Part shown: positions 10,864 through 62,065 of the stretch, piece by piece
Position numbering within the stretch: position 1 is the stretch's first letter
How the letters are laid out: each line of letters opens with the position of its first letter
Assembly (NCBI GenBank): GCA_021513695.1
Contig: CP084166.1
Coordinates: forward strand, 2,720,001-2,784,000
Length of the DNA: 64,000 bases
Direction: 5' to 3'
Source of the DNA: Candidatus Heimdallarchaeum aukensis
GTDB lineage: Archaea > Asgardarchaeota > Heimdallarchaeia > Heimdallarchaeales > Heimdallarchaeaceae
The notes under the pieces: model-generated
What the model saw: the letters and a program-made list of their open reading frames with translations, nothing else
What the model was told of the DNA's origin: nothing
Databases searched by the model: none
Translations under genes and position numbers: made by a program

Positions 10864-11844
10864 CTATTCATCTTGAAAATCTCTTATTAGGGTAACTTCA
10901 AAGAGTGGTGCAGCTTTTACAGACCAGAAAACTTGTTTATCTATTATATTGCTTAGAAGGTAACGCGTTATTTCAGTTTCAGTTAAACCTGTTTTTGTTT
11001 TCTTGATACCTTGTAAATCCTTCACAAATTCTATCAACAATTTCGTTAATAGATTTGTAGATCTTATTTGTTCCATTCTGGTGGTAACTAACCAACACGA
11101 AACAGAATCATCAGCAGCCATGATAAACTGACGGTCTCTATATTTCAAAATTTCAATTATAGGAAAATGACTAGAAGAAAATTTACACTGAATGACTGGA
11201 GATAAAATATCAGAGTTCAAATTAGATTGAGGAGTAGTTAATCTCATCTCGTAAACTCCCTTATCAGTTTTGATGTAAGAAATAAACATCTCAACAGTTA
11301 TTTTGTCAACTATTAATTGTTGGATAATGCTTGAAGCTAACCAATTAATTGTTCTATCAAAATTTTTTCCTGAACTAAAGGATGTGCTTAAATACTCGAT
11401 GTTTTTTTTTCTTACTCCATCTGAAAATTTCTTAACTATGGATTTTACTTCAGAGTTAGAGAATTCTTCATCTCTCATGTTAAATAATACTAAAACAGGA
11501 TTTTCTTCTTTTAACCAATTTAAAGAGCGAGTAAACCACTTTTTAGATTCATGTAGCTGATCTTTTTTAGTAATATCTGTAACATAAATAAGTGCATCAG
11601 AGCGAGAAATAAAACTCTTCCATAAGGTCTTTCTAAAAGAAGGAAGACCACCTAAATCAGTAATATCTAATATTATACCATCGGCATTATATAACTCGTG
11701 GTTAACTCCCATTGTAGAAGTGATAATGGTGTTGTTGTAACCTAATAGACGGTTAATGAAATAAGTTTTGCCAGAATTTTCTAATCCAGCAACAGTAACA
11801 GAAATATCACGTTTCAAATAATAATAATTCGGTGACACATCCAA
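10864..11844 (-). CDS. small GTPase with C-terminal roadblock/longin-like domain (Rag/Gtr- or MglA-like)
   Basis: P-loop GLENSGKT, switch II DLGG and an NMRD (NKxD-like) motif lie in the first ~175 aa. The following ~150 aa form an alpha/beta domain. The start codon is TTG. Confidence 0.55.
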   Translation of the reverse strand: MDVSPNYYYLKRDISVTVAGLENSGKTYFINRLLGYNNTIITSTMGVNHELYNADGIILDITDLGGLPSFRKTLWKSFISRSDALIYVTDITKKDQLHESKKWFTRSLNWLKEENPVLVLFNMRDEEFSNSEVKSIVKKFSDGVRKKNIEYLSTSFSSGKNFDRTINWLASSIIQQLIVDKITVEMFISYIKTDKGVYEMRLTTPQSNLNSDILSPVIQCKFSSSHFPIIEILKYRDRQFIMAADDSVSCWLVTTRMEQIRSTNLLTKLLIEFVKDLQGIKKTKTGLTETEITRYLLSNIIDKQVFWSVKAAPLFEVTLIRDFQDE

Positions 11845-20360: not shown

Positions 20361-21542
20361 TTATTCATATGCCTTCATTAGTATCCTTAAAGCTTCTTCT
20401 TTTGTTACATCTTTTGGATTTAAGGTAAGTGATCCATCATTTATCGCTTTTTCTGCTATTTCTTCTAGTTGTTCTTCTTTCACTCCTGCTTCTTTCAATG
20501 TTTTTGGTAATTTTATTAGTTCATTTAACCTCTCTTGAAGTTCTTCTATTTTTTCTATGAACTTTCTAGCTCTTTCTTTTTCTTCAGTTTTTACATATAT
20601 TTCTTCTCCCGCTAGTGGTAAAAGTAGTTCTTTTAACTCTTCTTTAATCTCTTCGTAGTTGAATTTAAGCACATGTGGTAGAAATATGTTCATTGCTACT
20701 CCATGAGGAATTTTTGCTACTGCTCCTGCAGCGTGTCCTAAACTATGTACTAGACCGACCATAGAATTAGAAAAAGCTACTCCTGCCATTGTTGCTGCTA
20801 TTGCCATTTCTAATCTTCTTTCTTTGTCCTTTCCATTTTTCACTAGTTCAACGATGTTTTTACTAATTAATTCTATAGCCTTCCATGCATAGACGTCGCT
20901 AAAGAGGTTTTTTTGTAAACAAGTATATGCTTCTATAGCGTGAGTTAGTGCGTCCATAGCTGTTAAAGCTGTTATATAAGCTGGTAGGGTAATAGTCATT
21001 CGTGGATCTATTACTGCTACGTCAGGCATAAGATATCGTGAAGTAAATAACATTTTAGTTGCAGACTTGTCATCTTTTATCACAGCAACTGCTGTTACTT
21101 CTGAACCTGTACCTGCAGTAGTAGGAATAACAAAAAGAGGTCTAAGCGGACGTTTTAATCTTTCTGCTCCAGCAAATTCTTTTAGATCTTTTCCTTTTTC
21201 TGAAACTAAGATATTTACTCCTTTTGCTGTATCTATTACTGATCCTCCGCCTATTGCTATTATCCCATCACATTTTTTTTCATTATAGATTTCTGCTATT
21301 TTATTTACTTCCTCGGTTGAAGAATCTTGAGGTATGTCATCTATTATAGCAGGGAATATTACATCTGCTCCTCCACATGCTTTAATTACTTTATCTACCA
21401 ACCCTGCTTTGTTTACTCCTCTATCAGTGAGAATGATAGGTCTTTTTACTCTGAAATTATCAAATTCCGAAGGCAAGTTTTCTAAAGCTTTTTTGCCTGC
21501 TAATATTTTTGTCTTATTCTGAAATTCAAAATATTCTTTCAT
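20361..21542 (-). CDS. iron-containing (group III) alcohol dehydrogenase
   Basis: GGGSVIDTAKG, the HGVAMNIFLPHVLKFN metal-site region and the Fe-ADH fold. The track start at 21551 is GTG; the likely start is ATG 21542 (MKEYFEF...). It lies 5 nt downstream of aor. Confidence 0.85.
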   Translation of the reverse strand: MKEYFEFQNKTKILAGKKALENLPSEFDNFRVKRPIILTDRGVNKAGLVDKVIKACGGADVIFPAIIDDIPQDSSTEEVNKIAEIYNEKKCDGIIAIGGGSVIDTAKGVNILVSEKGKDLKEFAGAERLKRPLRPLFVIPTTAGTGSEVTAVAVIKDDKSATKMLFTSRYLMPDVAVIDPRMTITLPAYITALTAMDALTHAIEAYTCLQKNLFSDVYAWKAIELISKNIVELVKNGKDKERRLEMAIAATMAGVAFSNSMVGLVHSLGHAAGAVAKIPHGVAMNIFLPHVLKFNYEEIKEELKELLLPLAGEEIYVKTEEKERARKFIEKIEELQERLNELIKLPKTLKEAGVKEEQLEEIAEKAINDGSLTLNPKDVTKEEALRILMKAYE

Positions 21543-21556
21543 TTTTTTCACCTTTA

Positions 21557-27021: not shown

Positions 27022-27297
27022 TATTTTAACCTTTTATAGTTTACTAGTACATAGTTACTTTTCTTACATATATAAGGTAACTTCTCCAAAAAAGTAAAGT
27101 TTGTCTCTTAAACGAAGAAAAATAAGTAAAGTGGAATAATTCCTTAAAAAACTAGTATATTTTTATTTTCTAATTAAAGTAAATTATTAATAAGATTACT
27201 ATCTTTCAAAAAAGTTATAAAGTTCTGTAGTTTTTACGTTTATAACAAGGTAAAGCATTAAGATAAACTTATGCAAATGAAAATTTAAAGTGATTTT

Positions 27298-28347
27298 ATG
27301 AGTGTAAGAGCACCGGAAGATATTCTACTAGAAGTAAAAGGCTTAAAAACCTACTTCTTTACAGAAGAAGGAGTAGTGAAAGCTATAGAATCAATTAATT
27401 TTGTTGTTTATAAATCAGAAACATTAGGGCTAGTAGGAGAATCTGGATCTGGAAAAAGTGTAACTGCTCTAAGCATCTTAGGAATAGTACCGGACCCACC
27501 GGGAAAAGTCCTTGAAGGTGAAGTTATTTTCCATGGTCAAGATTTACGTAAATTAAGCCCTGCTGAAATGCGCAAAATCAGAGGAAACCAGATTGCCCAA
27601 GTATTTCAAGATCCAATGACCTCTTTGAACCCTGTTTTCACTGTTGGAGACCAAATCGGAGAAGCTATTATTCTTCATCAACAAGTTTCAAGGAAGGAAG
27701 CTAGAGAAAAAGCTATCAAAATTATGTCTCTTGTTGGTATTCCTTCTGCAGATGAACGTGTTGATAACTATCCCTTTGAGTTCTCAGGAGGTATGCGCCA
27801 AAGAGTTATGATTGCTATGGCTCTCAGTTGTAATCCTGAGCTTCTCATCGCAGACGAACCTACAACAGCTTTAGACGTAACTATTCAAGCTCAAATTCTC
27901 GAGCTTCTAAAAGCAACCAGTGAAGAGTTCGACATGAGTATTATTCTTATTACACATGATATGGGTGTTATTGCAGAGATGTGTGATCGTGTAGCAGTCA
28001 TGTATGCAGGGTATATTGCTGAAGTTAGCGACATAATGACTATTTTCAAGTCTCCTTTGCATCCTTATACCAAAGGTTTGCTCGGAGCTATTCCTCGTCC
28101 TGATGCGAAAAGAGAAGACTTGACGATTATTAGAGGAAGTATTCCTAATCTTATTAATCCTCCATCTGGATGTCGTTTCCATCCTCGATGTGATTACTGG
28201 ATTAAAGGCTTATGTGAAGTGAAAGTTCCTGAGTTTATAGAAATTGAACCAGGACATGAATTAATGTGCCACTTATACACTGAAGAAGGTAAAGCTTATC
28301 TGGAAGCTCACAAAGACCACCCCAGAATATCTTATGCAGCAAAGTAG
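27298..28347 (+). CDS. dppD: ABC peptide transporter ATP-binding protein DppD/OppD type
   Basis: Walker A GESGSGKS, signature FSGGMRQR, Walker [13 protein letters not shown] and the C-terminal oligopeptide-ABC Cys-rich extension. Confidence 0.9.
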
Positions 28348-28358
28348 GTGAATAAAGA

Positions 28359-29564
28359 ATGTCAACACCATCTATTATAGAAAAATTACAAGCAAAAAAA
28401 GGAAAAGATGCAAGAATTAAAACTAAAGAACTCGAGGAAGATGTTGTTCTCGAAGTTGAAAATTTAGCTAAATACTTTAAAATCCCTAATCCTATGGATA
28501 CAACTTGGTTCTTAGTTGCTTTTGTAGCCTCATTAGTAATATTCGCATTTTTCAAAATTATTGGACTTATTCTTATAGGATTGATTATTCTAGCTTATTT
28601 CATTATACCTTATATTCCACCATTCAATAAAAGACCAAAATTTGTTTATCTGAAAGCAGTTGATGGTCTAAACCTTAAAATTAGAAAACAAAAAATTGTA
28701 GGTCTTGTAGGAGAAAGTGGATGTGGAAAGAGTACAGCAGCTAGAACTATTTTACGTCTTCTCGAACCAACCAAAGGTTCTGTTTATTTCAGGGGTATAG
28801 ACATCAACAGATTAACTTCTGATGAATTAAAAGAAATGAGAAGATATATGCAGATAGTGTTTCAAGATCCTTATGCCAGTCTTAACCCAAGAGCAACAGC
28901 TTTTGATATTATATCTGAACCATATATCATTCATGGAGTAGCTTCTGGAGACGAAATAAGTATTAATGTTCTCAGATTGTTAAAGGAAGTAGGATTAGCT
29001 CCTCACCACGCTTACAGATATCCTCATGAGTTCTCTGGTGGTCAAAGACAAAGAATAGGAATTGCTCGTGCTTTAGCTTTAGAGCCTGATTTCATCATCA
29101 TGGACGAACCTGTAAGTAACTTAGACGTTTCTGTAAGAGCAGCAATTATTCAACTAATTCTAAAATTACAACAAAAAATGGGTTTGACTTATCTATTTAT
29201 TGCTCATGATCTTGCACTAGTTCGTATCCTCTGTGATGAAGTAAATGTTATGTATCTCGGAAAACTAATGGAAGCTGGAACAAGCGATGAAATCTTCGAG
29301 GATATGAAGCATCCTTATACAAAAGCTTTAGTTTCTGCAGTTCCAATAGCTGACCCAACAAAAAGATCTAAGAAAATATTCTTACAAGGAGATATTCCTA
29401 CACCAATTAATCCTCCACCAGGTTGCCGTTTCCAAACTCGATGTCCTCTTGTGAGTGACATCTGTCGAGCTGAAGATCCTAAACCTAAATATTTCAGTAA
29501 AACACATGTTGTATATTGCCACAATGTTGAGGGTGGAGAAGATTCTCCAAACGCTTTTGAATAA
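28359..29564 (+). CDS. dppF: ABC peptide transporter ATP-binding protein DppF/OppF type with ~55-aa hydrophobic insertion
   Basis: Walker A GESGCGKST, FSGGQRQR and IIMDEPVSNLD. Residues ~44-97 (TTWFLVAFVASLVIFAFFKIIGLILIGLIILAYFIIPYIPPF) are inserted between the first beta-strand and the P-loop. Confidence 0.85.
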   Translation: MSTPSIIEKLQAKKGKDARIKTKELEEDVVLEVENLAKYFKIPNPMDTTWFLVAFVASLVIFAFFKIIGLILIGLIILAYFIIPYIPPFNKRPKFVYLKAVDGLNLKIRKQKIVGLVGESGCGKSTAARTILRLLEPTKGSVYFRGIDINRLTSDELKEMRRYMQIVFQDPYASLNPRATAFDIISEPYIIHGVASGDEISINVLRLLKEVGLAPHHAYRYPHEFSGGQRQRIGIARALALEPDFIIMDEPVSNLDVSVRAAIIQLILKLQQKMGLTYLFIAHDLALVRILCDEVNVMYLGKLMEAGTSDEIFEDMKHPYTKALVSAVPIADPTKRSKKIFLQGDIPTPINPPPGCRFQTRCPLVSDICRAEDPKPKYFSKTHVVYCHNVEGGEDSPNAFE

Positions 29565-29653
29565 AACTTTCTTTTTTCCTTTTCAACCTTTTTTAAATAT
29601 AGCATAATTCTTATATTACTTATTATTATATTTCAATTGTTAAAATAAAATGC

Positions 29654-30421
29654 TTGGTGACCAAGTCAATGAGTAAGGTAAATGTACAAACAGCTCTAAA
29701 TAATATTGAAAGAATAAAGTCAGAATTAGAAGAATTAACTCAATTAGTTGTTGGGTTGAAAGAAGATCTTAATTATTCTGTAGAAAATAGTAAAAATTCA
29801 TTGTCAAGTATACTAAAAAAAATAGAAGAGAAAAGTGAAAATATAACCAATCTTGAAAATTCTAGAAAAGAATTACAACGTCAAATTAGCGAAAAAACTG
29901 GTGAATTAAACGAAAAGACATCAAAGAAGGATATTTTGGCCTCTGAAATACAAAGTAAAAGGCAAGACTTAGAAAAGCTTAATTCTGTCATTCTCACAGA
30001 AGAAAAGAATAAAACAGAACTGCAAACCGAAACAGTTGGAAAAGAGGAGAAGTTACAATCACTTAACAGAAAAATAGAAGAGAATCAAGTCTTAATTGAA
30101 GCAACAAAAGAAGAAACAGAGAAAGAAATTTTAGCCAAGAATCAAGAACTTATGAAATTAAGTGATGAAAAAGATAAAATTATTTCAAGAGCTAAAGCGC
30201 TAAAATATCTCCTGAAGAAAAACATTATCAGCTTACCAGAGATCAATGTAATCAGAAGTCTAAATGTACCAGGAGTAGATACTGAAGAAAACATTAGAAA
30301 AACTTCTGGCGTTTCTGACCAGATTGTAAGGAAAATTTTGATGGATCTGGATGAGAGAGGAATTATAACCTATGAAACATTATCGGGGAAGGTGCAAAAA
30401 CTAACTAGAATAGATATTTAG
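29654..30421 (+). CDS. coiled-coil protein with C-terminal winged-helix-like domain (paralogue A)
   Basis: About 180 aa of heptad-rich E/K/L/Q sequence, then LPEINVIRSLNVPGVDTEENIRKTSGVSDQIVRKILMDLDERGIITYE, which looks like a wHTH. No enzymatic motifs. Confidence 0.5.
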   Translation: MVTKSMSKVNVQTALNNIERIKSELEELTQLVVGLKEDLNYSVENSKNSLSSILKKIEEKSENITNLENSRKELQRQISEKTGELNEKTSKKDILASEIQSKRQDLEKLNSVILTEEKNKTELQTETVGKEEKLQSLNRKIEENQVLIEATKEETEKEILAKNQELMKLSDEKDKIISRAKALKYLLKKNIISLPEINVIRSLNVPGVDTEENIRKTSGVSDQIVRKILMDLDERGIITYETLSGKVQKLTRIDI

Positions 30422-30432
30422 GAGGAATAAGA

Positions 30433-31197
30433 ATGCAAGAAGTTGAACAACTTAGGTCTCATTTAGACAGAATTAGAGAATCAATAGACAACTTGAGCAA
30501 TAAGCTCAATAATAAAATCAATACAATTCGTTCTATTTCTTCTTCTACTGATGAAGAAATAAATGTAATTCCTGGATTCTTCGAAGAACTAGAAAAAAAA
30601 GAAAATGAACTAAATGAAGAAATCAAAAAACTAAAAGAAGACCTTCAAAATTTAGTAGATAATATACAAAAAACTGAAGAAGAAATCTCTCTCAATGAGG
30701 TTGAACTACAGAAGTTAAAAGAAAAAGAAAATGAAAAAAGAGAAGAGAAAGATAAGATTATTTCTGAAATAGCTGAGTTGAAAAACAAGAATATTCTTTT
30801 AGATACTCAAATAGAGGAAAAAACAAAAGAACTTGAAACATTAACAGAACAATATTCACAAGTACAAATTAATTCAAAACAACAGATAGAAGAACTAACA
30901 GCAAAAATTAGCGCACTTGAAGAGGAACTAAAGAAAGCGAAAGAAGATAATAAACTTATAGTTTACTTGATGGACGCAGGATTGATGGATGTTCCTGAAG
31001 CTGAAATAATCTCGGTAATTGCAGCAAGTACTGATGGATTAACATTAAACGAAATAAAGGAAAAAGTTTCTATCCCTAGCGTAAGAGTACAACCTACACT
31101 AAATAATTTACTTGAAAAAGTCTTAACTTATGATGCAAGAAGAGAGAAATACCAGATTAGTTCAATAGTACAAGAAGAAATGAACAATAGATCCTAA
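30433..31197 (+). CDS. coiled-coil protein with C-terminal winged-helix-like domain (paralogue B)
   Basis: Same architecture as the upstream gene, 11 nt downstream and preceded by GGAGGA. C-terminal DGLTLNEIKEKVSIPSVRVQPTLNNLLEKVLTY. Confidence 0.5.
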   Translation: MQEVEQLRSHLDRIRESIDNLSNKLNNKINTIRSISSSTDEEINVIPGFFEELEKKENELNEEIKKLKEDLQNLVDNIQKTEEEISLNEVELQKLKEKENEKREEKDKIISEIAELKNKNILLDTQIEEKTKELETLTEQYSQVQINSKQQIEELTAKISALEEELKKAKEDNKLIVYLMDAGLMDVPEAEIISVIAASTDGLTLNEIKEKVSIPSVRVQPTLNNLLEKVLTYDARREKYQISSIVQEEMNNRS

Positions 31198-32375: not shown

Positions 32376-33038
32376 TTAAACTAATGAGGTATTTATTAAA
32401 TAAGTAGAGAAAATAGCATTCATTAATTCATTTCTTTCTCTGATTAACTCAGTGATGATTTCTCCAAATCTTTCGTCTCTTATTTCTTCTCTAACTTCAT
32501 TCAACAGTATTTCGTTAAGTCCTTTGTTTAAACATAAAGTTATTTTATTGCATTTATACAAGATTGCTAGTAATAGTTTGGTGTGCATGGTTGCTTTTTT
32601 CGAATTAATTATAGTCTCTTGTAATTGATGCATTAGTTCAATTTTTACGCGTTCTTCTGTACAGAAAATTTTTCTTCTTTTAAAAAATAGAAACCTTTTT
32701 TCAGATTTAGTTAGTATTCCGCTCTTAATCATAACTTCAATAAAAGATTCAAGTATTTGATTTGATTTTATGCCTAATGATCTTATCCAAAACCTAATAT
32801 CGCTTTCATGTTCATTTTGCATTTCTTCAATAATATTCTTAAAAATAGGTTGTGTAGTTTCTGATGAAATAATCTCTATCTTATTATCATCTCTAATTTT
32901 TATTAAGTTTAACATCTCTAAATCGATAATTATAGATGAAGGTAAACCATAAAAAATAAGGTCACTACTACTTTTTTCTATCCTTCCTCTCCTTTGATCA
33001 ATTAACAAGATTATTAACTTCTCTGTTAGTAATAACAT
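32376..33038 (-). CDS. GPP34 (GOLPH3/Vps74-like) family protein
   Basis: The N-terminal LLLTEKLIILLIDQRRGRI...YGLPSSIIIDLEMLNLIKIRDD follows the GPP34 pattern (LxEELLLLALDDxxGK...LAGAxLAELxLxGRI). The FWIRSLG...SGILTKSEKRFLFFKRRKI and LLLAILYKCNKI blocks are also in family order. Confidence 0.45.
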   Translation of the reverse strand: MLLLTEKLIILLIDQRRGRIEKSSSDLIFYGLPSSIIIDLEMLNLIKIRDDNKIEIISSETTQPIFKNIIEEMQNEHESDIRFWIRSLGIKSNQILESFIEVMIKSGILTKSEKRFLFFKRRKIFCTEERVKIELMHQLQETIINSKKATMHTKLLLAILYKCNKITLCLNKGLNEILLNEVREEIRDERFGEIITELIRERNELMNAIFSTYLINTSLV

Positions 33039-35464: not shown

Positions 35465-35625
35465 ATATTTAGTTTCAATATCTTCAATTTGAAAGATTTT
35501 TTCTATTTTTTCTTTTTATATACTCTTTTTTTGATATTTTTTGAATTATTTGTAAAATCTGCCTATCTCTTCACTGTAACCTTTTAGAGATATTGTTAAC
35601 CCTTCATATCGGAATATTTAAATTT

Positions 35626-36603
35626 ATGAATGTATTTTTTCCCCCCATGTCGGATAAAACTCTATTTAAAAAACAATTATTGTTTAAGTATTTACCTGTA
35701 ACAATTTTACTTATTGTTATTGGTATAATCGAACTTCTTTCTATTCTTTTAAATTTTAACCGCCCACAAGATGCTCCTGAGCTGACATGGTTTTTAATTA
35801 TTATTTTGTTAATCGTAGGTATTACAGCAGGTTTTCTAGGCGGTATTATTGGTACTGGTGGTTGCAGTGTTATGCTTCCAATATTACACTTTTGGTTGGG
35901 TTTCCCTGCTCCACTTGCAGTTGGTACAACATTATTTGCTGTTATTTTTACTGCCATATCTGGTGGGTATGGACACTTAATCCGAAAAAATGTAGATAAA
36001 AGAGCATCCATTATCTTAGGATTATCGGGTATTGCTGGTGTCGCTCTTGGTTCTTGGTTATTTACTATGCTGACTGGAGAAAACACAGTAAGATATTTGA
36101 GTTTGATTCTTGGTATTGTTTTTATATGGCCCGCAATTAGGATGACTTGGGAAGGAATAAGGGGCAAGATAATAGATAAAAAAGGTTCTACGGAAATAAA
36201 AACAGAGACTAAAGAGCAGGTAATTAAAGGATCAGTTAAATGGTTAAGTGTATTTGGTTTTATTATTGGAATAACTACTGGCTTAATTGGTCTTGGAGGT
36301 GGTTATGCTCTTGTTCCTGGACTTATATATCTGTTTGGAGCACCTGTTTATATAACAATGGGTACTTCTTTGGCTATTATGATACCTTTAGCTTTAACTG
36401 GTGGGTTGATTAAATTATTCCAAGGATATGTTGTTCTTGACGCCGCTCTGCTTCTTGCAGCAGGAACAATTATTGGTGCTCAAATAGGTTCTGCTGTGAT
36501 TAAAAAATTCAGACCTTATTACTTGAAGCTCATATTTGGTCTGTATTTTGTTTACGTTTCATTAAAGTTCATATTCTGCTTTTTTGGTTTGAGAATATGG
36601 TAA
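35626..36603 (+). CDS. TauE/SafE (DUF81) family sulfite/sulfo-compound exporter
   Basis: Two 4-TM halves, each with G-rich motifs (GFLGGIIGTGGCSVMLPIL and LIGLGGGYALVPGLIYLF). The track start is TTG 35593; candidate ATG starts are 35626 or 35647. Confidence 0.7.
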   Translation: MNVFFPPMSDKTLFKKQLLFKYLPVTILLIVIGIIELLSILLNFNRPQDAPELTWFLIIILLIVGITAGFLGGIIGTGGCSVMLPILHFWLGFPAPLAVGTTLFAVIFTAISGGYGHLIRKNVDKRASIILGLSGIAGVALGSWLFTMLTGENTVRYLSLILGIVFIWPAIRMTWEGIRGKIIDKKGSTEIKTETKEQVIKGSVKWLSVFGFIIGITTGLIGLGGGYALVPGLIYLFGAPVYITMGTSLAIMIPLALTGGLIKLFQGYVVLDAALLLAAGTIIGAQIGSAVIKKFRPYYLKLIFGLYFVYVSLKFIFCFFGLRIW

Positions 36604-36855: not shown

Positions 36856-37977
36856 TCACATTTTCTTTTGGCCATCTATTAACATAAGTACACTTTGTTC
36901 TTTGGGTTTTTCATAGCCCCATTTGTTAATAAATTGCTTCCAACGAGAGTAGATCTTTAATTTATCTGCTTCTGATATTCGATATGAACCTGGTTTGTAA
37001 TCTTTTGTTTTTTCTAAATATTTGTCAAACATGGGTTTAGCATCGTTAAATCCTGGTAAAGATAAATCTTGATAAATTCCTTCTAATACTTTAATCGGAT
37101 TCTTTACAAATTCTTCGTATCTAATTTCAACATAGTTCTCTTTAGGTATTAAATCTAAATCTTGGTAAAACTTGTTGTACATCTGCTCAAAGTTTGATAG
37201 AACGAACTCATCTAGGTCTTCTTCTCTTTCTTGTAATTGAAGCAAACTAATAAGTTTCTTGTGCATTCTTTTTGTTGAAAAGAAAACTTTGTATGGATCT
37301 CTAATTATATGGATAAATTTAGCTTTAGGAAAAAGTTCTGTTAGCAAATCTACCCTTGCAGTATCAATTGGACTTTTCATTACTAGTGTTTTATCTTGCT
37401 TCTTAATTTCTAGTTTTTTGATCAAATAAAGAATACTTCTTTTTAGTTTTCTTTTCTCTTTTTTTGAGACATTCTTGAAAGTTACATACCTGTTGTAATA
37501 GTCTTGATTAGTTGGAAAATAAGCTCCGGTATAAGGAGACATTGTACAAAGATTAGCTATCGCGAAATCATGTTCACTTGGAGAATCAGCTTTAATTTTC
37601 ATATTATCTTGCGGTCTTTTTTCAGGTAAAAATAAAGATAAAAGCCAATTAAAGAAACGAGAAAAACCTAGAAAATAATAGGGAAAGACACTTTCAGTTA
37701 AAGTTATGAATTCGTGTTGGGGGTCACTTACTAATAATTCGTGCAAAAATGTAGTCCCTGTTCTCCAATGACCTAGTATAAAAATTGGTTGTTTCTTTAT
37801 TTTATGCTTAGATATTTTGCGATCAAAAAGAATCTTTTCTATGAGTATTAAAGGACTAAAAATAAATGTAAGAAAAGTTATAATTATTGCTCTTAAGCTG
37901 TATTTCCATGAGATTTTAAATCTATTTTCAAAAAGCAATTTCATCCATTTAGCAAAACTAGTTCCAACTACAAACAT
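36856..37977 (-). CDS. membrane-anchored sulfotransferase (PAPS-dependent family), paralogue 1
   Basis: 5'-PSB P-loop ILGHWRTGTTFLHELL and the 3'-PB region IHIIRDPYKVFFS. An N-terminal hydrophobic segment (AIIITFLTFIFSPLILIEKILF) precedes the catalytic domain. Confidence 0.75.
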   Translation of the reverse strand: MFVVGTSFAKWMKLLFENRFKISWKYSLRAIIITFLTFIFSPLILIEKILFDRKISKHKIKKQPIFILGHWRTGTTFLHELLVSDPQHEFITLTESVFPYYFLGFSRFFNWLLSLFLPEKRPQDNMKIKADSPSEHDFAIANLCTMSPYTGAYFPTNQDYYNRYVTFKNVSKKEKRKLKRSILYLIKKLEIKKQDKTLVMKSPIDTARVDLLTELFPKAKFIHIIRDPYKVFFSTKRMHKKLISLLQLQEREEDLDEFVLSNFEQMYNKFYQDLDLIPKENYVEIRYEEFVKNPIKVLEGIYQDLSLPGFNDAKPMFDKYLEKTKDYKPGSYRISEADKLKIYSRWKQFINKWGYEKPKEQSVLMLIDGQKKM

Positions 37978-54062: not shown

Positions 54063-55199
54063 TTAGTTACTGGTACTAGAAGGTTCTATTTTTTCATATC
54101 CCCAATGATCTCTGTAGTCTGACCAGTATTTATTCACTCTTTCTATCACATCATCTGTTATTTTGTGTACATTAGGTTTATATTCTCTTTTTTGTGTTTC
54201 TGCATATTTTCTCATGTTTTCTCTATATTCTTCTTTTAGCTCTAAACCAAGCTCTGAGTATATTCTATCAATATGTTTCATTGGTTCCTCAATGAATTCT
54301 TCATATTTTACATGTACAATATTACCTTCAGGAATAAGTTTGATATCTCGTTCTAGATATTCATAAAGAGTTTTGTAGTTGCGTAGAATATCCAATTTCA
54401 TTTTTTCATCATCCCAAGTTTGTAAGGTATAAATTGCAAAAACTTCATCAAAGAACTTGTATGTACTAGGATAAACTTCATAGGGATTTCTATAAGTATG
54501 AATGAATTTTGCGTTAGGAAACATTTCTAGAATATGAGGAATTCGATAACTATTAGTGGGATTTTTAAAAATCATCTGTCTTCCTTCATATTTTAAGGTC
54601 ATTTTCTGAACAAAGTAGTAATAGATTTTTTTCCATTTCTCCAGATCCTTGGGTAAACCCTCAAAAGTCAAGTAACGAGTATATTGGTCAAAATTTCTTG
54701 GAAAAATAAATCCATTATAATAACCATATTTAGACATAGCTCCAATTGAGTACTCTTCTTCTGTTGGTTCTTCTGCTCCCATCGGAACGTTATCCATTGG
54801 TCTTACATCTGGCAAAGACATATCAATCAGTGCTTTAGTAATTTTAGGGAATGAAAGGAAGAAGTGTGGAGCATAACCCTCTAAGTTTGAAACATAACCT
54901 CTATCTTTATCCATAGATAATAAAGTCATTAGGTATGTTGTTCCAGTCCTATAATGACCAATTACAAAAATTGGGTCGGTTTTTATTTCTGTTTTCTTTA
55001 TTTTTCTATGATATAAAATTCTCTCTATAACCCTCATTGGAGCAGTAATTGTAGCTAGACCAATCGCATACCAGAATCTCAAATAATATTTGGGGTGAAT
55101 CCTGAATTTATTTTCCCATAGCAATCGAAAAATATTTGTAAAAGACATTCCAGCCAAAGGCTCTTCTTTGCAAATCAACCAAGTTTTTTTGTGTGCCAT
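54063..55199 (-). CDS. membrane-anchored sulfotransferase (PAPS-dependent family), paralogue 2
   Basis: VIGHYRTGTTYLMTLL and IHTYRNPYEVYPS. It aligns along its full length with the 36856..37977 product, including the N-terminal hydrophobic segment. The track start at 55238 is GTG; the nearest ATG is 55199. Confidence 0.75.
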   Translation of the reverse strand: MAHKKTWLICKEEPLAGMSFTNIFRLLWENKFRIHPKYYLRFWYAIGLATITAPMRVIERILYHRKIKKTEIKTDPIFVIGHYRTGTTYLMTLLSMDKDRGYVSNLEGYAPHFFLSFPKITKALIDMSLPDVRPMDNVPMGAEEPTEEEYSIGAMSKYGYYNGFIFPRNFDQYTRYLTFEGLPKDLEKWKKIYYYFVQKMTLKYEGRQMIFKNPTNSYRIPHILEMFPNAKFIHTYRNPYEVYPSTYKFFDEVFAIYTLQTWDDEKMKLDILRNYKTLYEYLERDIKLIPEGNIVHVKYEEFIEEPMKHIDRIYSELGLELKEEYRENMRKYAETQKREYKPNVHKITDDVIERVNKYWSDYRDHWGYEKIEPSSTSN

Positions 55200-55351
55200 A
55201 AAATCACTCTCGTCCTCTAGATCCTCAAAGAAAAGCACTTGGTTATAAAATTAATTCTAAAACGAAAAAGAAAAGAAACATTTTACTGTTTTACCCCAGC
55301 TTAACTCATATTTAAGGTGCTGCTTTTTTCTTAAAAAAATGAGCTGAAAAT

Positions 55352-57597: not shown

Positions 57598-57633
57598 ATT
57601 TTAAGAAATAATTAAATATAATTAGTTTTTTCT

Positions 57634-59070
57634 ATGTTCAGAATGAGTGTTAGAAACTATTTAACTAATGTAAAAGAGAGTTATAATAGAGCAAAAGAAG
57701 GAGAAGGATTTTCCTTTCTTTTTACAGTTGTGATTGGTTTAGGCTTTTTTACAACCGCAATTACATGGGCAATGTATAATGTTTACATTCCTACTTATTT
57801 GGACGAGTACTTATTTTTGAATTGGGGAGAGCTGCCTTTTGCAAGCACAATTATTGGTTTCATCATGGTACTTGACAATATCGTTGCTGTGATAATGCAA
57901 CCTTGGATAGGTCATATTAGTGATCGAATATGGAAAAGATACTCTCCAAATAAATGGGGAAGAAGAATGCCTTTTATTGTAATTGGAATACCCTTAGGTG
58001 CTATATTTTTTACAATGTTAGGGTTGTTTGGTACTGATAACTTTACAGGTAGTCCCATGACAGGTTTCATTCTTTTACTGTTAACCATTGGAGGATTCAA
58101 TATTTCGATGGCTTTGTATCGTTCTCCTGTTGTAGCATTAATGCCCGATTTAGTACCAAAAGAGTATCGTAGCAGAGGAAACGGTTTGATCAACTTAATG
58201 GGCGGAGTAGGAGCCCTAATGGCTTTGTTTATTCTACCAATTGTATATCGAAAAAATCCTTTACTAGCTTACCTTATTGTAAGCTTAGTGATGATTTTCT
58301 GCTTGGTTATCTTATACTTTACAATAAAAGAACCTGAAGTACTTAAAGACAAAGAAGAAAAAGAAAAAGTGAAAATTATTGAGACTGTAAAAGAATTCTT
58401 TGCTCAAGAAGATAAAAGCATGATTTTTATCTTGTTTGCTATTTTCGCTTGGTTCTTGGGTTATAATGTCATAGAAACGTTTTTCTCGTTATACGGTGTT
58501 AACATCCTCCAAATAGAAAAAGAAGATGCAAGCACTATTTTAGGGGTACTAGCTTTAATGTTTATTCTCTCCTCTGTACCTGCTGGTTTTGTAGCCAAGA
58601 AGATTGGTAGAAAAAGAACGATCTTAGTTGGACTCGGGATAATTCTAGTTGCTCTAGTAATTGCTGCAATCTTTTCGGTAGTAACTATTCCAAGCTTACA
58701 AACTCGAACAACATTTTTAGGAATGGATGTTCCCTATACTGCTTTCATTATACTAGGTTGCTTCTTCTTTAGTGGAATTGGTTGGGCCTTTGTTAACATT
58801 AATAGTATAGTAATTGTCTGGACTTTAGCTGGAAAAGAGCGTGTAGGTGCTGGAACAGGAGTATATTATTTCTTCTCTGCTTCAGCAGCTATAATTGGAC
58901 CCGTTTTAGTAGGTGGAATATTTGATTTAATCAAATATATATTCGGTCTTCCAGCGGGATTACAATACAAGACTTTATTCTTCTTCTCTGCTTTCTTCTA
59001 TTTAGTAGCGATGGTCCTTACTCTCTTTGTTAAAACTACTGGAGTAGAAGGAGAAAAAGAAGAAGAGTAA
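57634..59070 (+). CDS. MFS-type transporter (12-TM; possibly GPH/sugar-cation symporter-like)
   Basis: 12 predicted TM segments with a central hydrophilic loop and an MFS-like GxxxDRxGRR region (HISDRIWKRYSPNKWGRR). Confidence 0.6.
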   Translation: MFRMSVRNYLTNVKESYNRAKEGEGFSFLFTVVIGLGFFTTAITWAMYNVYIPTYLDEYLFLNWGELPFASTIIGFIMVLDNIVAVIMQPWIGHISDRIWKRYSPNKWGRRMPFIVIGIPLGAIFFTMLGLFGTDNFTGSPMTGFILLLLTIGGFNISMALYRSPVVALMPDLVPKEYRSRGNGLINLMGGVGALMALFILPIVYRKNPLLAYLIVSLVMIFCLVILYFTIKEPEVLKDKEEKEKVKIIETVKEFFAQEDKSMIFILFAIFAWFLGYNVIETFFSLYGVNILQIEKEDASTILGVLALMFILSSVPAGFVAKKIGRKRTILVGLGIILVALVIAAIFSVVTIPSLQTRTTFLGMDVPYTAFIILGCFFFSGIGWAFVNINSIVIVWTLAGKERVGAGTGVYYFFSASAAIIGPVLVGGIFDLIKYIFGLPAGLQYKTLFFFSAFFYLVAMVLTLFVKTTGVEGEKEEE

Positions 59071-59086
59071 AATCACTTTTTTTTTC

Positions 59087-62065
59087 TTATTCTTCATTAG
59101 TAGAAGGTAAAAAAACCATTCCTTCTTTTCTTTTTGCGTCAACTCTTACAATTAAGGGTACATCTGTTTGTACATGAACAACATAATCCCCTTCTTCAAT
59201 AATTTTTTGACTTTTTAACCATTCCCAGTTTATAACATGTTTCTCTGAATTGTGTTTTATGTATAGATAACCTAAATTTCCAGCAACAATAGAAGAGAAA
59301 AAGTGACTTCCTTGGCTAAAATCCACACTGAAATCTGATGTTGAAGCTTCAATAATAGCTATAGCACCGTTAATATTTGTCCATTTTACAGGAATACCTA
59401 AAAATCTATCAGCGGTTCCCCATCTACCAAAGCCAATTAGGATATAAGGTGCGTTTTTCTCTCGTAGAATAGCGTTTAATTCATCTATTTCTTGAACAAT
59501 TTCAAGTGTTTTTGTCTTATCAAAAGTCTCTGGCCTAACATAAATAATGTCATTAATATCTTTTCTAATTAAGTTACCACTTACCGTGTTTGAAAAAAGA
59601 ATAATTTTGTCTTTCTGAATCATAGAATAATCTTCAAATTCTAATTCTTCTTGCAACAAAAATGGTCTGATTTGTAGCATATAGAATTGATCTTTTTCTT
59701 CCTTACCAGACTTGAAATTGCCTGCAAATTCTATTTCAATAGGCGAACCCATCGCTTTTTCTCCTATTTCCATCATTGTACTAATTATTTTTGCAAGAGG
59801 AAAGGTTTCTAATTTTAGTTGTTGGTTAAAAGTTATAACTGGAGAACCTTTTTGGTAATATCCTGTCTTCAATGCTTCAGAATTAAAGTCATATGTATCG
59901 GCTATTTTTGTCAAAGATCCGTCTTTTATTGCATGAATTAAGTTATACTTCTTCACATAAGGGTCAGTCGTCTCAATGTCGAATTCGTCTTTTTCCATAT
60001 CTATAGCATAAAAAGTATTTTGGCTTTGTTCAAGAAGTTCTTTAATGTCTGCATAGTAATTAACCTTTGGGTATTTTGGGCTAAATCGAATTGATTGTCC
60101 TCCTTCTACAACATATCTTCCTAGACCTAAAGCCACACTGGCTATCCTATCTTCAGATTTCATATAGTGACCTATTGGATAGAAATTGAAGGAAGAAGCT
60201 GTTCCGCTAAAATTAGGATAGTATCTCCCATCATATCGTTTTCCTACAACTTCTTGTATAACTACAGCCATTTTAGATTGTTCTACAGTCATGTCAATTA
60301 ATTCTGCGTATGTTCGTGCGAGTTTCAAAAAGGGGGAGGCATAGACTAATTTTATTGCCGTACATAATTGATTTAGACGTTTTTTAATATCTGAACTATT
60401 ATTGGGCAACATATAAGTCTCAAAAATTCCTGCAAATGGTTGATAGGCAGAATCTTCTAATAAACTTGAAGAACGAATGGCTAAAGGTTTTTTCAAATCT
60501 TTAAGCAAAAACTGCAAGTCTTCACGTAAACTAGATGATAATTTAGCTTTAACGAACTTTTCTTTTATTTGTTTGTCTGTTATATCTGGTTTGTGAGCAA
60601 ACTCATACAAATTGTTTTCAGCCATAAATTTATCAAATTCATCAGTTCCTATTACAATAGTTTTTGGTATTGTGATTGTAACGTTAGGAAATAGATCTTG
60701 AAGCTTGAATGAATGGATTAAGAACATTATAAAAGCTACTCCTCTCCCCTTTCCTCCTAATGAACCTGGACGAAGTCTTAAAAAAAGTATCTCTGGATGG
60801 TAGCTGTCTTTATTAAAATCATTTACTATCCCTTTGGTTTTCTCTACCACTATTCTTCTAAAATTCTTCAGTAAAAATTCTCTTAATTCTTCGTCTGTGA
60901 ACTCTGAAACTTTTCTGGGCTTAAGTGCTTCTGCTACATCGAACTCTCCTCTAGCATTTAACCATCCAGAAAAATGGTCATTTTTTCCATGATATTTTAA
61001 CGATTCATATGGAATTACCTTTAATTGTTCATAGAATTCAATTATATCTTTTGCTCTTCCCAGTTCTTTTCCTTTTTCATCTCGAAAAATAAATTCACCA
61101 AAACCAACGCATTCTAACAACCATTTATTAAGAGCACTTAAGACCTCGTGACTTCCTTTGTATATGAAGAAACAAGCTAGTTCATCTGCAAGTTTTTTAT
61201 ATTCCTTCTTTGAGGATTGCAAAATTACAGGAAGATTTTTTGTTTCTTTTTTTATTTGTTTTATAAAATCAATTCCTGCATTTTTGTCTAATACTCCATT
61301 TCTCGGGAATTCAACATCAGTAATTACTCCTAAAACATTGCTCTTATACTTAGAAAAATACTCCATCGCTTCTTCGTAAGTTTCAGCAAGTAATATTTTT
61401 GGCCTTATCCTCATCTTAAGTAGATCTAAATAATCGTTTGAACCTTCAAGTATTAATTGATGTGTCTGCTTCATTATGGCCCCATAAAGCTCTGGAAGAA
61501 GGAGTGAATAATGACGAATAGAATCCTCTACAAAAATGAAAACTCTAACATTTGCTATTTTAATATCATTATCAATATTTAATTTATCTTCCAAATGTTT
61601 AACAATTGCTACAAATAGTTTTGAATCACCATTCCAAACAAAAATACGATCAACATTTTTTCTTTTAGATTTTTCAGGTAAATATTTAATTTCTACAACA
61701 CTATTTAAAAGTAGAACTACAGGAATGTTTTTGATTTTCTTTACTTTTTCACCAAAAGTAAAAGGATTAATATCTCCAACCCGACTCATAGTTATTACTA
61801 AATCAAAATCTTCTTTTTTTATTAGCTCTAAAGCCTCAGAAGCTAATGAAACGCGGGTTATTCTTGGAAGAGTTCTCAAGTTAAGGTTCCGAAACTCTTC
61901 ATAAACTTGGTCGGATAACCTCCCATCCTCTTCTAAGAGAAAACTATCGTAGATTGAACTTACAATTAATATATTTTTCATCCTAATTTTCATTAATTCG
62001 TGAAATACTTTGTATCTAGGTTTGTATTCTGAGAATAACTGATTTGAACCTCTTATAAAATCCAA
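59087..62065 (-). CDS. multidomain signalling protein: two receiver (REC)-like domains plus a PEP-synthase/PPDK-type ATP-grasp domain, with a C-terminal domain possibly related to a degenerate PEP-utilising swivel
   Basis: The REC-like 1 (ILIVSS...DLVITM) lacks the acidic pocket. The REC-like 2 (IFVEDS...LGVITDVEFP...PVILQSS) retains a candidate phospho-Asp. LRPGSLGGKGRGVAF and PLAIRSSSLLEDSAYQPFAGIFETY match the PPDK_N nucleotide-binding signatures (GGKxxxL ... RSSAxxEDxxxxSFAGQxxTY). The C-terminal LIGFGRWGTADRFLGIPV resembles a His-less version of GGRTSHAAIxARELGIPxVVG. TTG start; the first ATGs are at residues 25 and 29. Confidence 0.65.
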   Translation of the reverse strand: MDFIRGSNQLFSEYKPRYKVFHELMKIRMKNILIVSSIYDSFLLEEDGRLSDQVYEEFRNLNLRTLPRITRVSLASEALELIKKEDFDLVITMSRVGDINPFTFGEKVKKIKNIPVVLLLNSVVEIKYLPEKSKRKNVDRIFVWNGDSKLFVAIVKHLEDKLNIDNDIKIANVRVFIFVEDSIRHYSLLLPELYGAIMKQTHQLILEGSNDYLDLLKMRIRPKILLAETYEEAMEYFSKYKSNVLGVITDVEFPRNGVLDKNAGIDFIKQIKKETKNLPVILQSSKKEYKKLADELACFFIYKGSHEVLSALNKWLLECVGFGEFIFRDEKGKELGRAKDIIEFYEQLKVIPYESLKYHGKNDHFSGWLNARGEFDVAEALKPRKVSEFTDEELREFLLKNFRRIVVEKTKGIVNDFNKDSYHPEILFLRLRPGSLGGKGRGVAFIMFLIHSFKLQDLFPNVTITIPKTIVIGTDEFDKFMAENNLYEFAHKPDITDKQIKEKFVKAKLSSSLREDLQFLLKDLKKPLAIRSSSLLEDSAYQPFAGIFETYMLPNNSSDIKKRLNQLCTAIKLVYASPFLKLARTYAELIDMTVEQSKMAVVIQEVVGKRYDGRYYPNFSGTASSFNFYPIGHYMKSEDRIASVALGLGRYVVEGGQSIRFSPKYPKVNYYADIKELLEQSQNTFYAIDMEKDEFDIETTDPYVKKYNLIHAIKDGSLTKIADTYDFNSEALKTGYYQKGSPVITFNQQLKLETFPLAKIISTMMEIGEKAMGSPIEIEFAGNFKSGKEEKDQFYMLQIRPFLLQEELEFEDYSMIQKDKIILFSNTVSGNLIRKDINDIIYVRPETFDKTKTLEIVQEIDELNAILREKNAPYILIGFGRWGTADRFLGIPVKWTNINGAIAIIEASTSDFSVDFSQGSHFFSSIVAGNLGYLYIKHNSEKHVINWEWLKSQKIIEEGDYVVHVQTDVPLIVRVDAKRKEGMVFLPSTNEE

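Follow-up and report, generated by a model that had tools for sequence, protein, structure and literature searches.

A putative response regulator of Candidatus Heimdallarchaeum aukensis with a PEP-synthase-type ATP-grasp domain, and the recurrent linkage of its family to glutamate dehydrogenase genes

Introduction

A single open reading frame in a 64-kb stretch of the Candidatus Heimdallarchaeum aukensis genome (contig CP084166.1; hereafter the window) appears to join receiver domains of the two-component type to an enzymatic module related to phosphoenolpyruvate (PEP) synthase, which raises the question of what such a protein would act upon. A first-pass annotation, made from the DNA letters, described a pseudo-receiver, a true receiver, a PEP-synthase-type ATP-grasp and a swivel-like domain without its histidine, and regarded the protein as a response regulator with a phosphotransfer output.

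The architecture itself is already catalogued. REC-PPDK proteins are listed in the response-regulator census of Galperin et al. 2018 (PMC5847659), and receivers lacking the phospho-acceptor Asp were found to be enriched with PPDK effector domains in the survey of Maule et al. 2015 (PMC4395418); these catalogue entries share the architecture of the window protein, and the passages matched from the two papers contain no function, no analysis of the C-terminal domain and no linkage to glutamate dehydrogenase (GDH). Literature searches for a functional study of DUF5752/PF19027, of proteins combining a receiver with PPDK_N, of GDH together with PEP synthase and a response regulator, or of BT1970-1972 found none. 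What is new here is the recurrent GDH linkage of the family.

Results

The gene, its homologues and its domain order

Translation of the window showed that the open reading frame is real and verified its codon coordinates. Thousands of full-length homologues were recovered in sequence searches at 33–93% identity, with Asgard homologues at 52–93% identity over 96–100% of the length and bacterial homologues at 33–50%. The orthologue of Ca. Heimdallarchaeum endolithica PR6 (CP084167.1) is 93% identical to the window protein. The domain features are far beyond chance, and the best reading of them is that the protein is a two-component response regulator whose output would be an enzyme of the PEP synthase/pyruvate phosphate dikinase/rifampin phosphotransferase superfamily (PpsA, PPDK and RPH, respectively). 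Pfam, the structural model, Foldseek and alignments agree on the domain order given by the first-pass annotation (Table 1), the interpretation of which is partly supported, as detailed below.

Table 1. Features of the REC-PPDK_N locus, in window coordinates.
Feature	Coordinates	Strand	Remarks
Whole gene, candidate REC-PPDK_N enzyme	59087..62065	minus	992 aa; TTG start; stop codon 59087-59089
REC1, aspartate-less pseudo-receiver, aa 28-172	61550..61984	minus	beta-alpha pattern in model; Foldseek, Pfam, alignments
REC2, phospho-acceptor receiver, aa 173-318	61112..61549	minus	PF00072 best stretch aa 202-291
Helical linker, aa 319-432	60770..61111	minus	pLDDT 84-90; PF19027 weak
PPDK_N ATP-grasp nucleotide-binding domain, aa 435-806	59648..60763	minus	PF01326 E 6e-37
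Swivel-like domain, aa 812-992	59090..59632	minus	G880-R881-W-G883-T884 loop; inserted beta-alpha-beta unit
MFS transporter, neighbour	57634..59070	plus	Pfam MFS_1/MFS_2; convergent with REC-PPDK_N gene

The neighbouring MFS gene is genomic context, with no demonstrated part in the REC-PPDK_N system. Neighbour clustering placed an MFS homologue beside the family gene in 10 other Asgard loci, and the window transporter is 51% identical to the one upstream of the homologue at locus L004 and 92% identical to that at the Ca. H. endolithica locus, L031.

One degenerate and one complete receiver

REC1 has indeed lost its acidic phospho-acceptor residues, as the first-pass annotation had claimed: S36-S37 (in ILIVSS) stand where the acidic pair would be, and T92-M93 (in DLVITM) where the phospho-Asp would be. 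Alignments reveal a conserved motif of its own, E45-E-D47-x-x-L-S-x-Q53, plus W144-x-G146. In isolation REC1 was matched by the Pfam REC profile with an E-value of 0.019, and its Foldseek matches include the tandem-receiver protein PleD.

The plausible phospho-Asp noted earlier in the second receiver is D250 (in LGVITDVEFP; codon 61316-61318), which belongs to a complete phospho-acceptor quintet with E180-D181, S284 and K303, a quintet that is incomplete in REC1. PF00072 (Response_reg) scored 33.2 bits on the 992-aa protein against a cut-off of 30.2, and Foldseek matched many receiver structures, both in keeping with the (beta-alpha)5 CheY-like fold. The five residues are conserved in an alignment across Asgard, Chloroflexota and Thermoplasmata homologues. 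D250 is found in 116/116 Asgard sequences and in 34 of the 49 sequences of bacterial paralogue A; in Cloacimonetes paralogue B it is replaced by Asn (65/66), and D181 by Thr (66/66).

Two consecutive receivers ahead of an enzymatic output, one phosphorylatable and one degenerate, are shared with PleD, the chains of which occupy Foldseek ranks 2–11. However, PleD carries the Asp in its first receiver and has a GGDEF cyclase output, whereas in the window protein it is the first receiver that is degenerate and the output comprises the ATP-grasp and swivel-like domains.

The linker and the ATP-grasp domain

The linker contains an invariant G321-F-G323 and the motif Y-H359-x-x-x-D-x-F-S366-x-W368-L. 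Its resemblance to DUF5752 is weak (PF19027 E-value of 0.0013 on the linker alone and 1e-5 in homologue P0123), and precomputed PF19027 matches exist for several homologues.

The middle region does carry the PEP synthase/PPDK nucleotide-binding signatures assigned to it, SLGGKGRGVAF (with K439) and AIRSSSLLEDS (with R531), and was detected by PF01326 (PPDK_N) at 128 bits against a cut-off of 27. Moreover, the key ATP-grasp residues, K439 and R441 (GGKGRG), R531 (RSSS), E537-D538, E777 and E779 (EIEFA), and Q798 and R800 (LQIRP), are 100% conserved in 231 homologues. Their counterparts in Escherichia coli PpsA, motif by motif, are K27, R127, D318/E320 and Q334/R336 (motifs GGK, VRSS, DIEW and QARP), and the two domains were aligned by hhalign with a probability of 93%. 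In searches of PDB sequences, whether with the single protein or with the family profile, RPH/PpsA were matched only across their RSSxxED stretch, receivers gave weak matches and the C-terminus gave none. With the whole structural model, the best PDB match in Foldseek was rifampin phosphotransferase (5hv2), consistent with the likeness to these enzymes noted from the sequence.

The C-terminal domain and residue H921

The motif LIGFGRWGTADRFLGIPV, quoted by the first-pass annotation as a swivel motif deprived of its histidine, is present at residues 876-893, and the canonical His position reads GFGRWGT, with the G-R-W-G-T loop located where PpsA has GGRTCH. Neither contains His, and to that extent the description stands. 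However, the inserted beta-alpha-beta unit carries S917-x-G919-x-H921-F-F (H921 codon 59303-59305), and H921, 30 residues downstream of the quoted motif in the loop S-x-G-[ST]-H-F-F (here S917-Q-G919-S-H921-F-F), is invariant in 231/231 homologues; the label ‘His-less’ therefore goes too far. In the predicted structure H921 is at the N-terminus of a helix, its loop being adjacent to the G-R-W-G-[ST] loop, which makes it a candidate for a relocated phospho-carrier.

Similarity searches with this part of the protein gave little. Neither PF00391 nor PF02896 was detected by Pfam in the 992-aa protein, and of the three profiles proposed earlier for annotating it, PF00072 and PF01326 were found and PF00391 was not. 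The isolated C-terminal domain had no Pfam match at an E-value of 10, and its model no significant Foldseek match in the PDB. When its profile was compared by hhalign with the PpsA swivel and with a three-sequence PpsA/PtsI/PtsP alignment, only DRFLGIPV was paired with ARELGIPA, at a probability below 1%. A regular-expression scan for further swivel domains in the loci studied and the window sequence returned only PpsA itself.

The window protein thus has in common with PpsA and PPDK the PPDK_N ATP-grasp with its catalytic Lys, Arg, Glu and Gln/Arg signatures, but lacks the PF00391 mobile domain, the G-G-x-[TS]-[SC]-H histidine and the PEP/pyruvate TIM barrel (PF02896), ends at residue 992 directly after the swivel-like domain, and has receivers in addition; on the PEP synthase equivalogs of NCBIfam it scored 39–52 bits against cut-offs of 598–883. 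In RPH (Listeria monocytogenes; PDB 5hv1/5hv2/5fbs) a large rifampin-binding domain separates the ATP-grasp from the His domain, the catalytic His is canonical and receivers are absent, whereas the window protein has GFGRWGT at the His position and places two receivers and the DUF5752-like linker before the ATP-grasp. Here only about five residues (aa 806-812) connect the ATP-grasp to the swivel-like domain, which leaves no room for a substrate domain, and the RPH model NF041857 gave 21 bits against a cut-off of 999. A classical PpsA/PPDK and an RPH-like antibiotic kinase were discounted because of the missing domains together with the NCBIfam scores.

Family extent and gene neighbourhood

The family comprises at least 1006 clusters (50% identity, E ≤ 1e-30). 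Its members are about 1000 residues long, keep their domains in the same order and have in common the motifs GGK-x-RG, RSSSLLEDS, E-x-E-F-A, LQ-x-RP, G-R-W-G-[ST] and S-x-G-[ST]-H-F-F, all of which occur in the window protein. Between archaeal and bacterial members, identity is about 50% across some 980 residues.

Of the 121 family genes flanked on either side by 1.6 kb or more of sequence, 52 (43%) have a GDH gene no more than 1 kb away, the encoded GDH being 60–67% identical to the Asgard one; by our estimate, adjacency of a gene present in one to three copies would be expected by chance at roughly 0.1%. The adjacency persists after clustering (27/72 clusters at 70% identity and 10/25 at 55%), spans Asgard archaea, Cloacimonetes and Bacteroidales, and occurs in all four relative gene arrangements. 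Among Asgard loci it was seen in 37 of 53, in two arrangements. Same-strand operons of the family gene and gdh are found in Cloacimonetes (loci L090-L092 and L093), and in one of Bacteroidales (L175) gdh is followed 43 bp on by the family gene. Tandem family paralogues, each paired with a dehydrogenase, were also observed.

The window protein itself has no GDH gene beside it: a phmmer search found no GDH in the 64-kb window, and none adjoins the orthologue at L031. Likewise, no GDH was found at 22 Chloroflexota, four Thermoplasmata and two Muribaculaceae family loci.

Single-sequence phmmer detected no cognate histidine kinase in the window, as the first-pass annotation had reported, and a search found no receiver there besides those of the 992-aa protein. 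Relatives do have signalling genes beside them, namely HisKA/HATPase kinases and NtrC-type regulators at Cloacimonetes-like loci, a kinase together with an OmpR-type regulator at 14–15 loci of Chloroflexota, and, at 21 loci, a sensor with three PAS domains. Other neighbours are variable and include MFS transporters, an MscS-like channel, AraC regulators and coiled-coil proteins.

Discussion

Glutamate dehydrogenase connects carbon metabolism with nitrogen metabolism and, a few lineage-specific cases aside, its post-translational regulation in archaea and bacteria is, to our knowledge, poorly characterised. From gene neighbourhood and homology, we tentatively favour the reading that the REC-PPDK_N protein is a phosphorylation-gated enzyme of the dikinase type that acts on or with GDH. 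A sensor kinase would phosphorylate D250 of REC2, while REC1, being without Asp, may serve as an adaptor or dimerisation module like the second receiver of PleD, and phosphorylation of D250 would gate the catalytic core. By homology with PpsA, PPDK and RPH, the ATP-grasp would bind Mg-ATP, and the swivel-like domain would dock and take the beta-phosphate, most likely on H921, with release of AMP. The phosphate would then be handed to a target. Because the GDH gene linkage is persistent through Asgard archaea and several bacterial phyla, GDH or a GDH ligand is the most likely one, although gene neighbourhood is an association and it is from this that we infer GDH as the substrate. The result would be a signal-controlled switch at the carbon–nitrogen branch point, with a logic comparable to that of AceK on isocitrate dehydrogenase. 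AceK and PDRP/PpsR (which act on PPDK/PpsA) are functional analogies only, each being an enzyme that adjoins and acts on one branch-point enzyme; their folds and chemistry are unrelated to those of the REC-PPDK_N family.

A stronger form of this proposal is speculative. We know of no PEP-synthase-type enzyme that phosphorylates a protein, and the family might be a protein dikinase, the first of that type with an enzyme as its substrate, in which a two-component-controlled phospho-H921, relocated to a new loop of a remodelled swivel, would switch GDH off or on. The gdh-X pair would have been exchanged between Asgard archaea and anaerobic bacteria. Reversible in vivo inactivation of Bacteroides GDH was reported in the 1980s–90s, and the family might be the ‘trans-acting gene downstream of gdhA’ of that inactivation.

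The substrate could instead be a small molecule, the protein being a metabolic (di)kinase that phosphorylates a metabolite of the glutamate/2-oxoglutarate node, or makes a signalling molecule, with the receivers tuning flux. We consider this unlikely, if the most serious of the alternatives. The substrates of all characterised PPDK_N enzymes known to us are either small molecules or glucans (pyruvate, rifampin, starch and a prodigiosin precursor), and the best NCBIfam matches of the window protein, all below threshold, are PigC, PpsA, RedH and RPH. Gene pairs of the gdh-X kind are also typical of consecutive pathway steps, and a 2-oxoacid:ferredoxin oxidoreductase operon is immediately upstream in L080 and close by in L088. 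However, there is no recognisable substrate-binding domain, with the PEP/pyruvate barrel absent and only the short joint present where RPH accommodates rifampin; moreover, receiver control and the tandem paralogues, each with its dehydrogenase, look more like a dedicated regulator.

It is more doubtful still that the protein is a response regulator whose enzymatic output is unrelated to GDH, with the adjacency reflecting co-regulation or co-transfer in amino-acid catabolism islands. Such a reading would accommodate the loci that lack an adjacent GDH, in the window, Chloroflexota, Thermoplasmata and Muribaculaceae, as well as the variability of the other neighbours, but an adjacency that recurs across domains of life, through four arrangements and at a frequency so far above our chance estimate, argues against it.

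We regard as improbable a self-contained phosphorelay, in which the ATP-grasp would load H921 and the phosphate would pass to the protein's own D250, making it an unorthodox ATP-driven receiver kinase with its real output elsewhere. In its favour, the passage of phosphate from His to Asp is natural chemistry, one chain contains both a complete receiver and an invariant His, and no kinase gene was detected in the window; kinase genes do, however, adjoin relatives, and paralogue B retains every ATP-grasp and C-terminal invariant, H921 included, in spite of its substitutions at D250 and D181. The catalytic core therefore works without the receiver aspartate, and it is for this reason that transfer from H921 to D250 is given less weight.

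Finally, a non-catalytic scaffold or pseudo-enzyme, or a mis-annotated PEP synthase/PPDK, is very improbable: public annotations do name relatives ‘phosphoenolpyruvate synthase’ or ‘PEP/pyruvate-binding domain-containing protein’ and no canonical GG-x-[TS]-[SC]-H motif is present, but the invariance of the catalytic ATP-grasp residues across 231 sequences speaks against a scaffold, and the lack of a PEP-utilizers_C barrel and the low equivalog scores against a true PpsA/PPDK.

Overall, the family to which the H. aukensis protein belongs is large and strongly conserved, appears to couple two-component input to PEP-synthase chemistry, and is often encoded beside gdh. For Asgard archaea, Cloacimonetes and the Bacteroidales of gut and sediment, it is a concrete and testable candidate for a regulator of GDH. 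If the proposed link to GDH is true, it would provide a handle on the old, unexplained observation in Bacteroides and would add to the dikinase superfamily a form without the canonical catalytic histidine motif.

Domain organization of the receiver-ATP-grasp protein

The receiver-ATP-grasp gene is read from a TTG codon, and this long start is right, because homologues conserve residues 10-24, which precede the first internal Met. Pfam searches placed a PPDK_N domain at residues 435-806 (E 6e-37) and a Response_reg match that barely exceeded its cut-off, and found neither PEP-utilizers (PF00391) nor PEP-utilizers_C (PF02896) in the protein. In NCBIfam, the PEP synthase, PigC/RedH and rifampin phosphotransferase (RPH) models matched sub-regions only, scoring 21-52 bits where cut-offs of 598-1350 apply. 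An AlphaFold model built from a 23-sequence alignment (mean pLDDT 74) displayed consecutive beta-alpha receiver folds (residues 28-172 and 173-318), a helical domain (residues 319-432, pLDDT 84-90), the ATP-grasp and, beyond a short low-confidence linker, a distinct C-terminal alpha/beta domain. When the model was compared with the PDB using Foldseek, the top match was RPH (5hv2, E 9e-8, 460 columns), followed by ten chains of the tandem-receiver diguanylate cyclase PleD. The helical domain weakly resembles DUF5752 (E 0.0013 for the isolated domain, E 1e-5 for a Bacteroidales homologue), on which a literature search found no papers.

The first receiver (REC1) carries S36-S37 in place of the acidic pair and T92-M93 in place of the phospho-Asp, and has a near-invariant motif of its own, E-E/x-D-x-x-L-S-x-Q (residues 45-53) with W144-x-G146. 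The second (REC2) has the full canonical set, E180-D181, D250, S284 and K303, in Asgard, Chloroflexota and Thermoplasmata homologues, and D250 is kept in 116/116 Asgard sequences. The first-pass annotation of a pseudo-receiver followed by a receiver was therefore correct.

Its assignment of the central region to a PPDK_N ATP-grasp also held, since PF01326 was found and the catalytic residues are all present. Using hhalign, this domain aligned with E. coli PpsA at 93% probability across its central part. A motif-by-motif comparison paired LGGKGRG (K439) with VGGKNAS (K27), AIRSSSLLEDS (R531) with AVRSSATAEDM (R127), EIEFA (E777, E779) with DIEWA, and LQIRP (Q798, R800) with VQARP. Established work on PPDK identifies these as the ATP- and Mg-binding residues. 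The six residues of this protein, and likewise R441, E537 and D538, do not vary across 231 homologues drawn from three divergent groups.

The C-terminal domain contains a candidate carrier histidine

Three collinear resemblances between the C-terminal domain and PpsA were read by eye: DIIYVRPETFD with DVLVTDMTDPD, YILIGFGR with AIVTNRGGR, and RFLGIPV with RELGIPA. Depending on gap placement, the canonical PpsA H421 falls between R881 and T884, where this comparison found no His. The domain also exceeds a classical swivel by some 70 residues, and its extra beta-alpha-beta unit bears the sequence S917-Q-G-S-H921-F-F. H921 lies at the N-terminus of a predicted helix (residues 920-928), the same local setting as that of the canonical T-S-H.

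H921, S917, G919, R881 and the W and G of a G-R-W-G-[ST] motif are invariant in 231/231 sequences. Among 130 family sequences, mostly 50%-identity cluster representatives, the H921-loop and G-R-W-G-[ST] motifs were present in at least 112 and at least 118, respectively. The two loops should lie on one edge of the sheet, because each comes after a parallel strand. Judged from sequence, the canonical position lacks a His and the domain retains H921 as a strong candidate for the carrier, either as the structural equivalent of the canonical residue or as a relocated one. The earlier description of the swivel as His-less thus applies to the canonical position and does not extend to the extra unit.

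The family is widespread and strongly constrained

A phmmer search of 1.84 billion representatives matched 4567 proteins at E <= 1e-3, of which 1006 reached E <= 1e-30, and the full architecture of about 1000 residues is retained down to 33% identity. Members with a named source belong, among archaea, to Heimdall-, Hod-, Thor-, Odin- and Lokiarchaeia and Thermoplasmata and, among bacteria, to Anaerolineales and other Chloroflexota, Cloacimonetes, Bacteroidales (including Muribaculaceae), Spirochaetales and Terriglobales; some Bacteroidales proteins have N-terminal extensions of 300-590 residues without Pfam matches. Archaeal and Chloroflexota proteins are about 50% identical over about 980 residues, which implies strong constraint together with lateral transfer. 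In public records the proteins are labelled 'hypothetical', 'PEP/pyruvate-binding domain-containing protein' or 'phosphoenolpyruvate synthase'. The precomputed annotation of a Hodarchaeales homologue (P0075) lists PF27715, which is newer than the Pfam release searched here and may be a recent model covering part of the family.

Family genes are linked to glutamate dehydrogenase

Of 79 loci taken from species-representative genomes, 53 are Asgard, and in 37 of these the family gene is flanked by a gene for an ELFV-family glutamate dehydrogenase (GDH) of 446 residues. In Heimdall lineages the GDH gene is convergent with the family gene and downstream of it; lineages of the Hod, Loki and Thor types have it upstream, in divergent orientation. 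Three Cloacimonetes-like loci (L090, L091, L092) encode on one strand two family paralogues (A, then B), GDH, a HisKA/HATPase kinase and an NtrC-type sigma-54 regulator, and a fourth (L093) has two paralogues followed by two GDH genes. On a further bacterial contig (L094:3880-9709) the sole insert between family gene and GDH is a restriction-modification cassette (N6_N4_Mtase, RhuM, ResIII). In a Bacteroidales MAG (L175), a 970-residue member begins 43 bp after gdh on the same strand and a second, 1547-residue member diverges from it; another Bacteroidales locus (L176) has the divergent arrangement of family gene and gdh. A metagenome scan with a diverse profile gave 80 loci. In 38 of them there is a GDH that shares 60-67% identity with the Asgard enzyme, mostly directly upstream on the same strand.

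When 172 loci were pooled, GDH lay within 1 kb of 52 of the 121 testable family genes, those flanked on each side by at least 1.6 kb. Adjacency was seen in 27/72 clusters at 70% identity and 10/25 at 55%; the chance expectation, for 1-3 copies per genome, is estimated at about 0.1%. GDH was upstream on the same strand in 34 cases (median gap 140 bp), downstream and convergent in 20 (39 bp), upstream and divergent in 17 (342 bp), and downstream on the same strand in 11 (126 bp).

Adjacency was absent from 22 Chloroflexota, four Thermoplasmata, two Muribaculaceae and some Cloacimonetes loci. At the Chloroflexota loci the place of GDH is taken by a divergent pair, an OmpR-type regulator and a kinase, and an MscS-like gene lies downstream in 9-10 of the 22; two Cloacimonetes loci (L080, L088) have an upstream operon for a four-subunit 2-oxoacid:ferredoxin oxidoreductase.

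A second ELFV-family dehydrogenase, of about 415 residues and about 30% identical to GDH, often lies downstream of the family gene (L100, L103, L106, L119, L122, L137, L164, L170, L174), so that the family enzyme is flanked by two different amino-acid dehydrogenases. Several metagenome loci read family gene, GDH, family gene, second ELFV dehydrogenase.

A rearrangement separates the gene from its usual neighbourhood

The AT-rich window (G+C about 31%) encodes archaeal or Asgard-type proteins including TBP and Alba. The gene is 93% identical to its counterpart in Candidatus Heimdallarchaeum endolithica PR6 (CP084167.1), where the flanks are conserved as well, so the source of the window is closely related to that Heimdallarchaeon. 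Its neighbours (two MFS transporters, a DUF498 protein, a sulfotransferase and Alba) offer no obvious functional lead. No kinase, additional receiver or GDH was detectable within the 64-kb window, in agreement with the first-pass finding that a cognate histidine kinase gene is missing from it.

Comparison with Heimdall locus L004 (MFS, family gene, GDH, two coiled-coil genes, OppF, OppD) accounts for the missing GDH. The Opp/coiled-coil block, which directly adjoins GDH and the family gene in other Heimdall genomes, lies 28 kb from the family gene in the window, and no GDH was found at either junction; GDH is absent here because a rearrangement has split the neighbourhood.

Elsewhere in the window, the 980-residue ORF is close to the studied gene in size and, judging by its lack of PPDK_N and REC matches, is not a paralogue. 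The two sulfotransferases and the TauE/SafE exporter suggest sulfated products, unusual for archaea. The aldehyde:ferredoxin oxidoreductase has a weak, sub-threshold SCP2 match at its C-terminus (20.2 bits against a cut-off of 21.3).

Features of the window
Feature	Position	Strand	Remark
Receiver-ATP-grasp gene	59087-62065	-	992 codons
Receiver-ATP-grasp gene with MFS gene	57622-62065		
Arf-family small GTPase with C-terminal extension	10864-11844	-	eukaryote-like signature protein typical of Asgard archaea
HEAT/Armadillo-repeat protein, 670 aa	17452-19464	+	as above
GPP34 (Golgi phosphoprotein 3) homologue	32376-33038	-	as above
Aldehyde:ferredoxin oxidoreductase adjoining iron-containing alcohol dehydrogenase	20361-23935	-	
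980-aa ORF	24079-27021	-	no Pfam family at E <= 0.001
OppD, OppF and two coiled-coil homologues	27289-31194	+	counterpart L004:10503-14425
TauE/SafE sulfite exporter	35593-36603		
Sulfotransfer_3-family sulfotransferase	36856-37977	-	
Sulfotransfer_3-family sulfotransferase	54063-55238	-	

Receiver phosphorylation as a probable regulatory input

In Cloacimonetes an NtrB-like kinase and an NtrC-like regulator accompany the family gene/GDH pair, and in Chloroflexota motif inspection identified a HAMP-type kinase nearby. A triple-PAS protein, whose C-terminal part is kinase-like by eye and has no Pfam kinase match, is found near the family gene in 15 Asgard and six metagenome loci. In Cloacimonetes paralogue B, D250 is replaced by N in 65/66 sequences and D181 by T in 66/66, and all of the catalytic invariants are kept. 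The receiver aspartate is therefore dispensable for the core, and phosphorylation would be a regulatory input and not a catalytic step; some lineages have lost this input, perhaps through partnership with paralogue A. The tandem paralogues overlap by 4 bp (L090:4038-10021) or lie 13-21 bp apart (L091:4022-9943, L093:4011-9976), and the second copy in L090 and L091, which retains the catalytic core and has lost both receiver aspartates, suggests a heteromeric enzyme.

A working model and its relation to known systems

By homology with PpsA, PPDK, RPH and GWD, ATP would be bound in the ATP-grasp, and a mobile C-terminal domain would take the beta-phosphate with release of AMP, H921 presumably serving as the carrier. 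The gene neighbourhood points to GDH, or something bound to it, as the possible acceptor, and to a nitrogen or amino-acid signal on which the REC pair may gate the reaction. The GDH of B. fragilis is reportedly inactivated reversibly in vivo (work ascribed to Yamamoto et al., 1987), and the L175 gdh-family gene operon fits this picture of reversible GDH inactivation in Bacteroides.

With an ATP-grasp and a swivel and no barrel, the protein would work most like RPH, and the tandem-receiver control ahead of its output recalls PleD. Membership of the PpsA/PPDK group was ruled out by the lack of the His motif, the barrel and an equivalog-level score, and that of the RPH group by the lack of the His motif, the substrate domain and such a score. 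The REC-PPDK architecture is already catalogued in two surveys (Galperin, 2018, PMC5847659; Maule, 2015, PMC4395418).

The literature searched yielded no functional work on the family. Both the superfamily of its enzymatic part and its type of signalling input are familiar, and that literature gave no description of the remodelled carrier domain or of the link to GDH. Overall, what the first-pass annotation had observed was confirmed, and its interpretation was borne out in part. The copy in the window stands without a GDH neighbour, and we infer both mechanism and target. The gene is no oddity of the window; it represents a very large family, unstudied and under strong constraint, for which GDH provides a clear functional lead.
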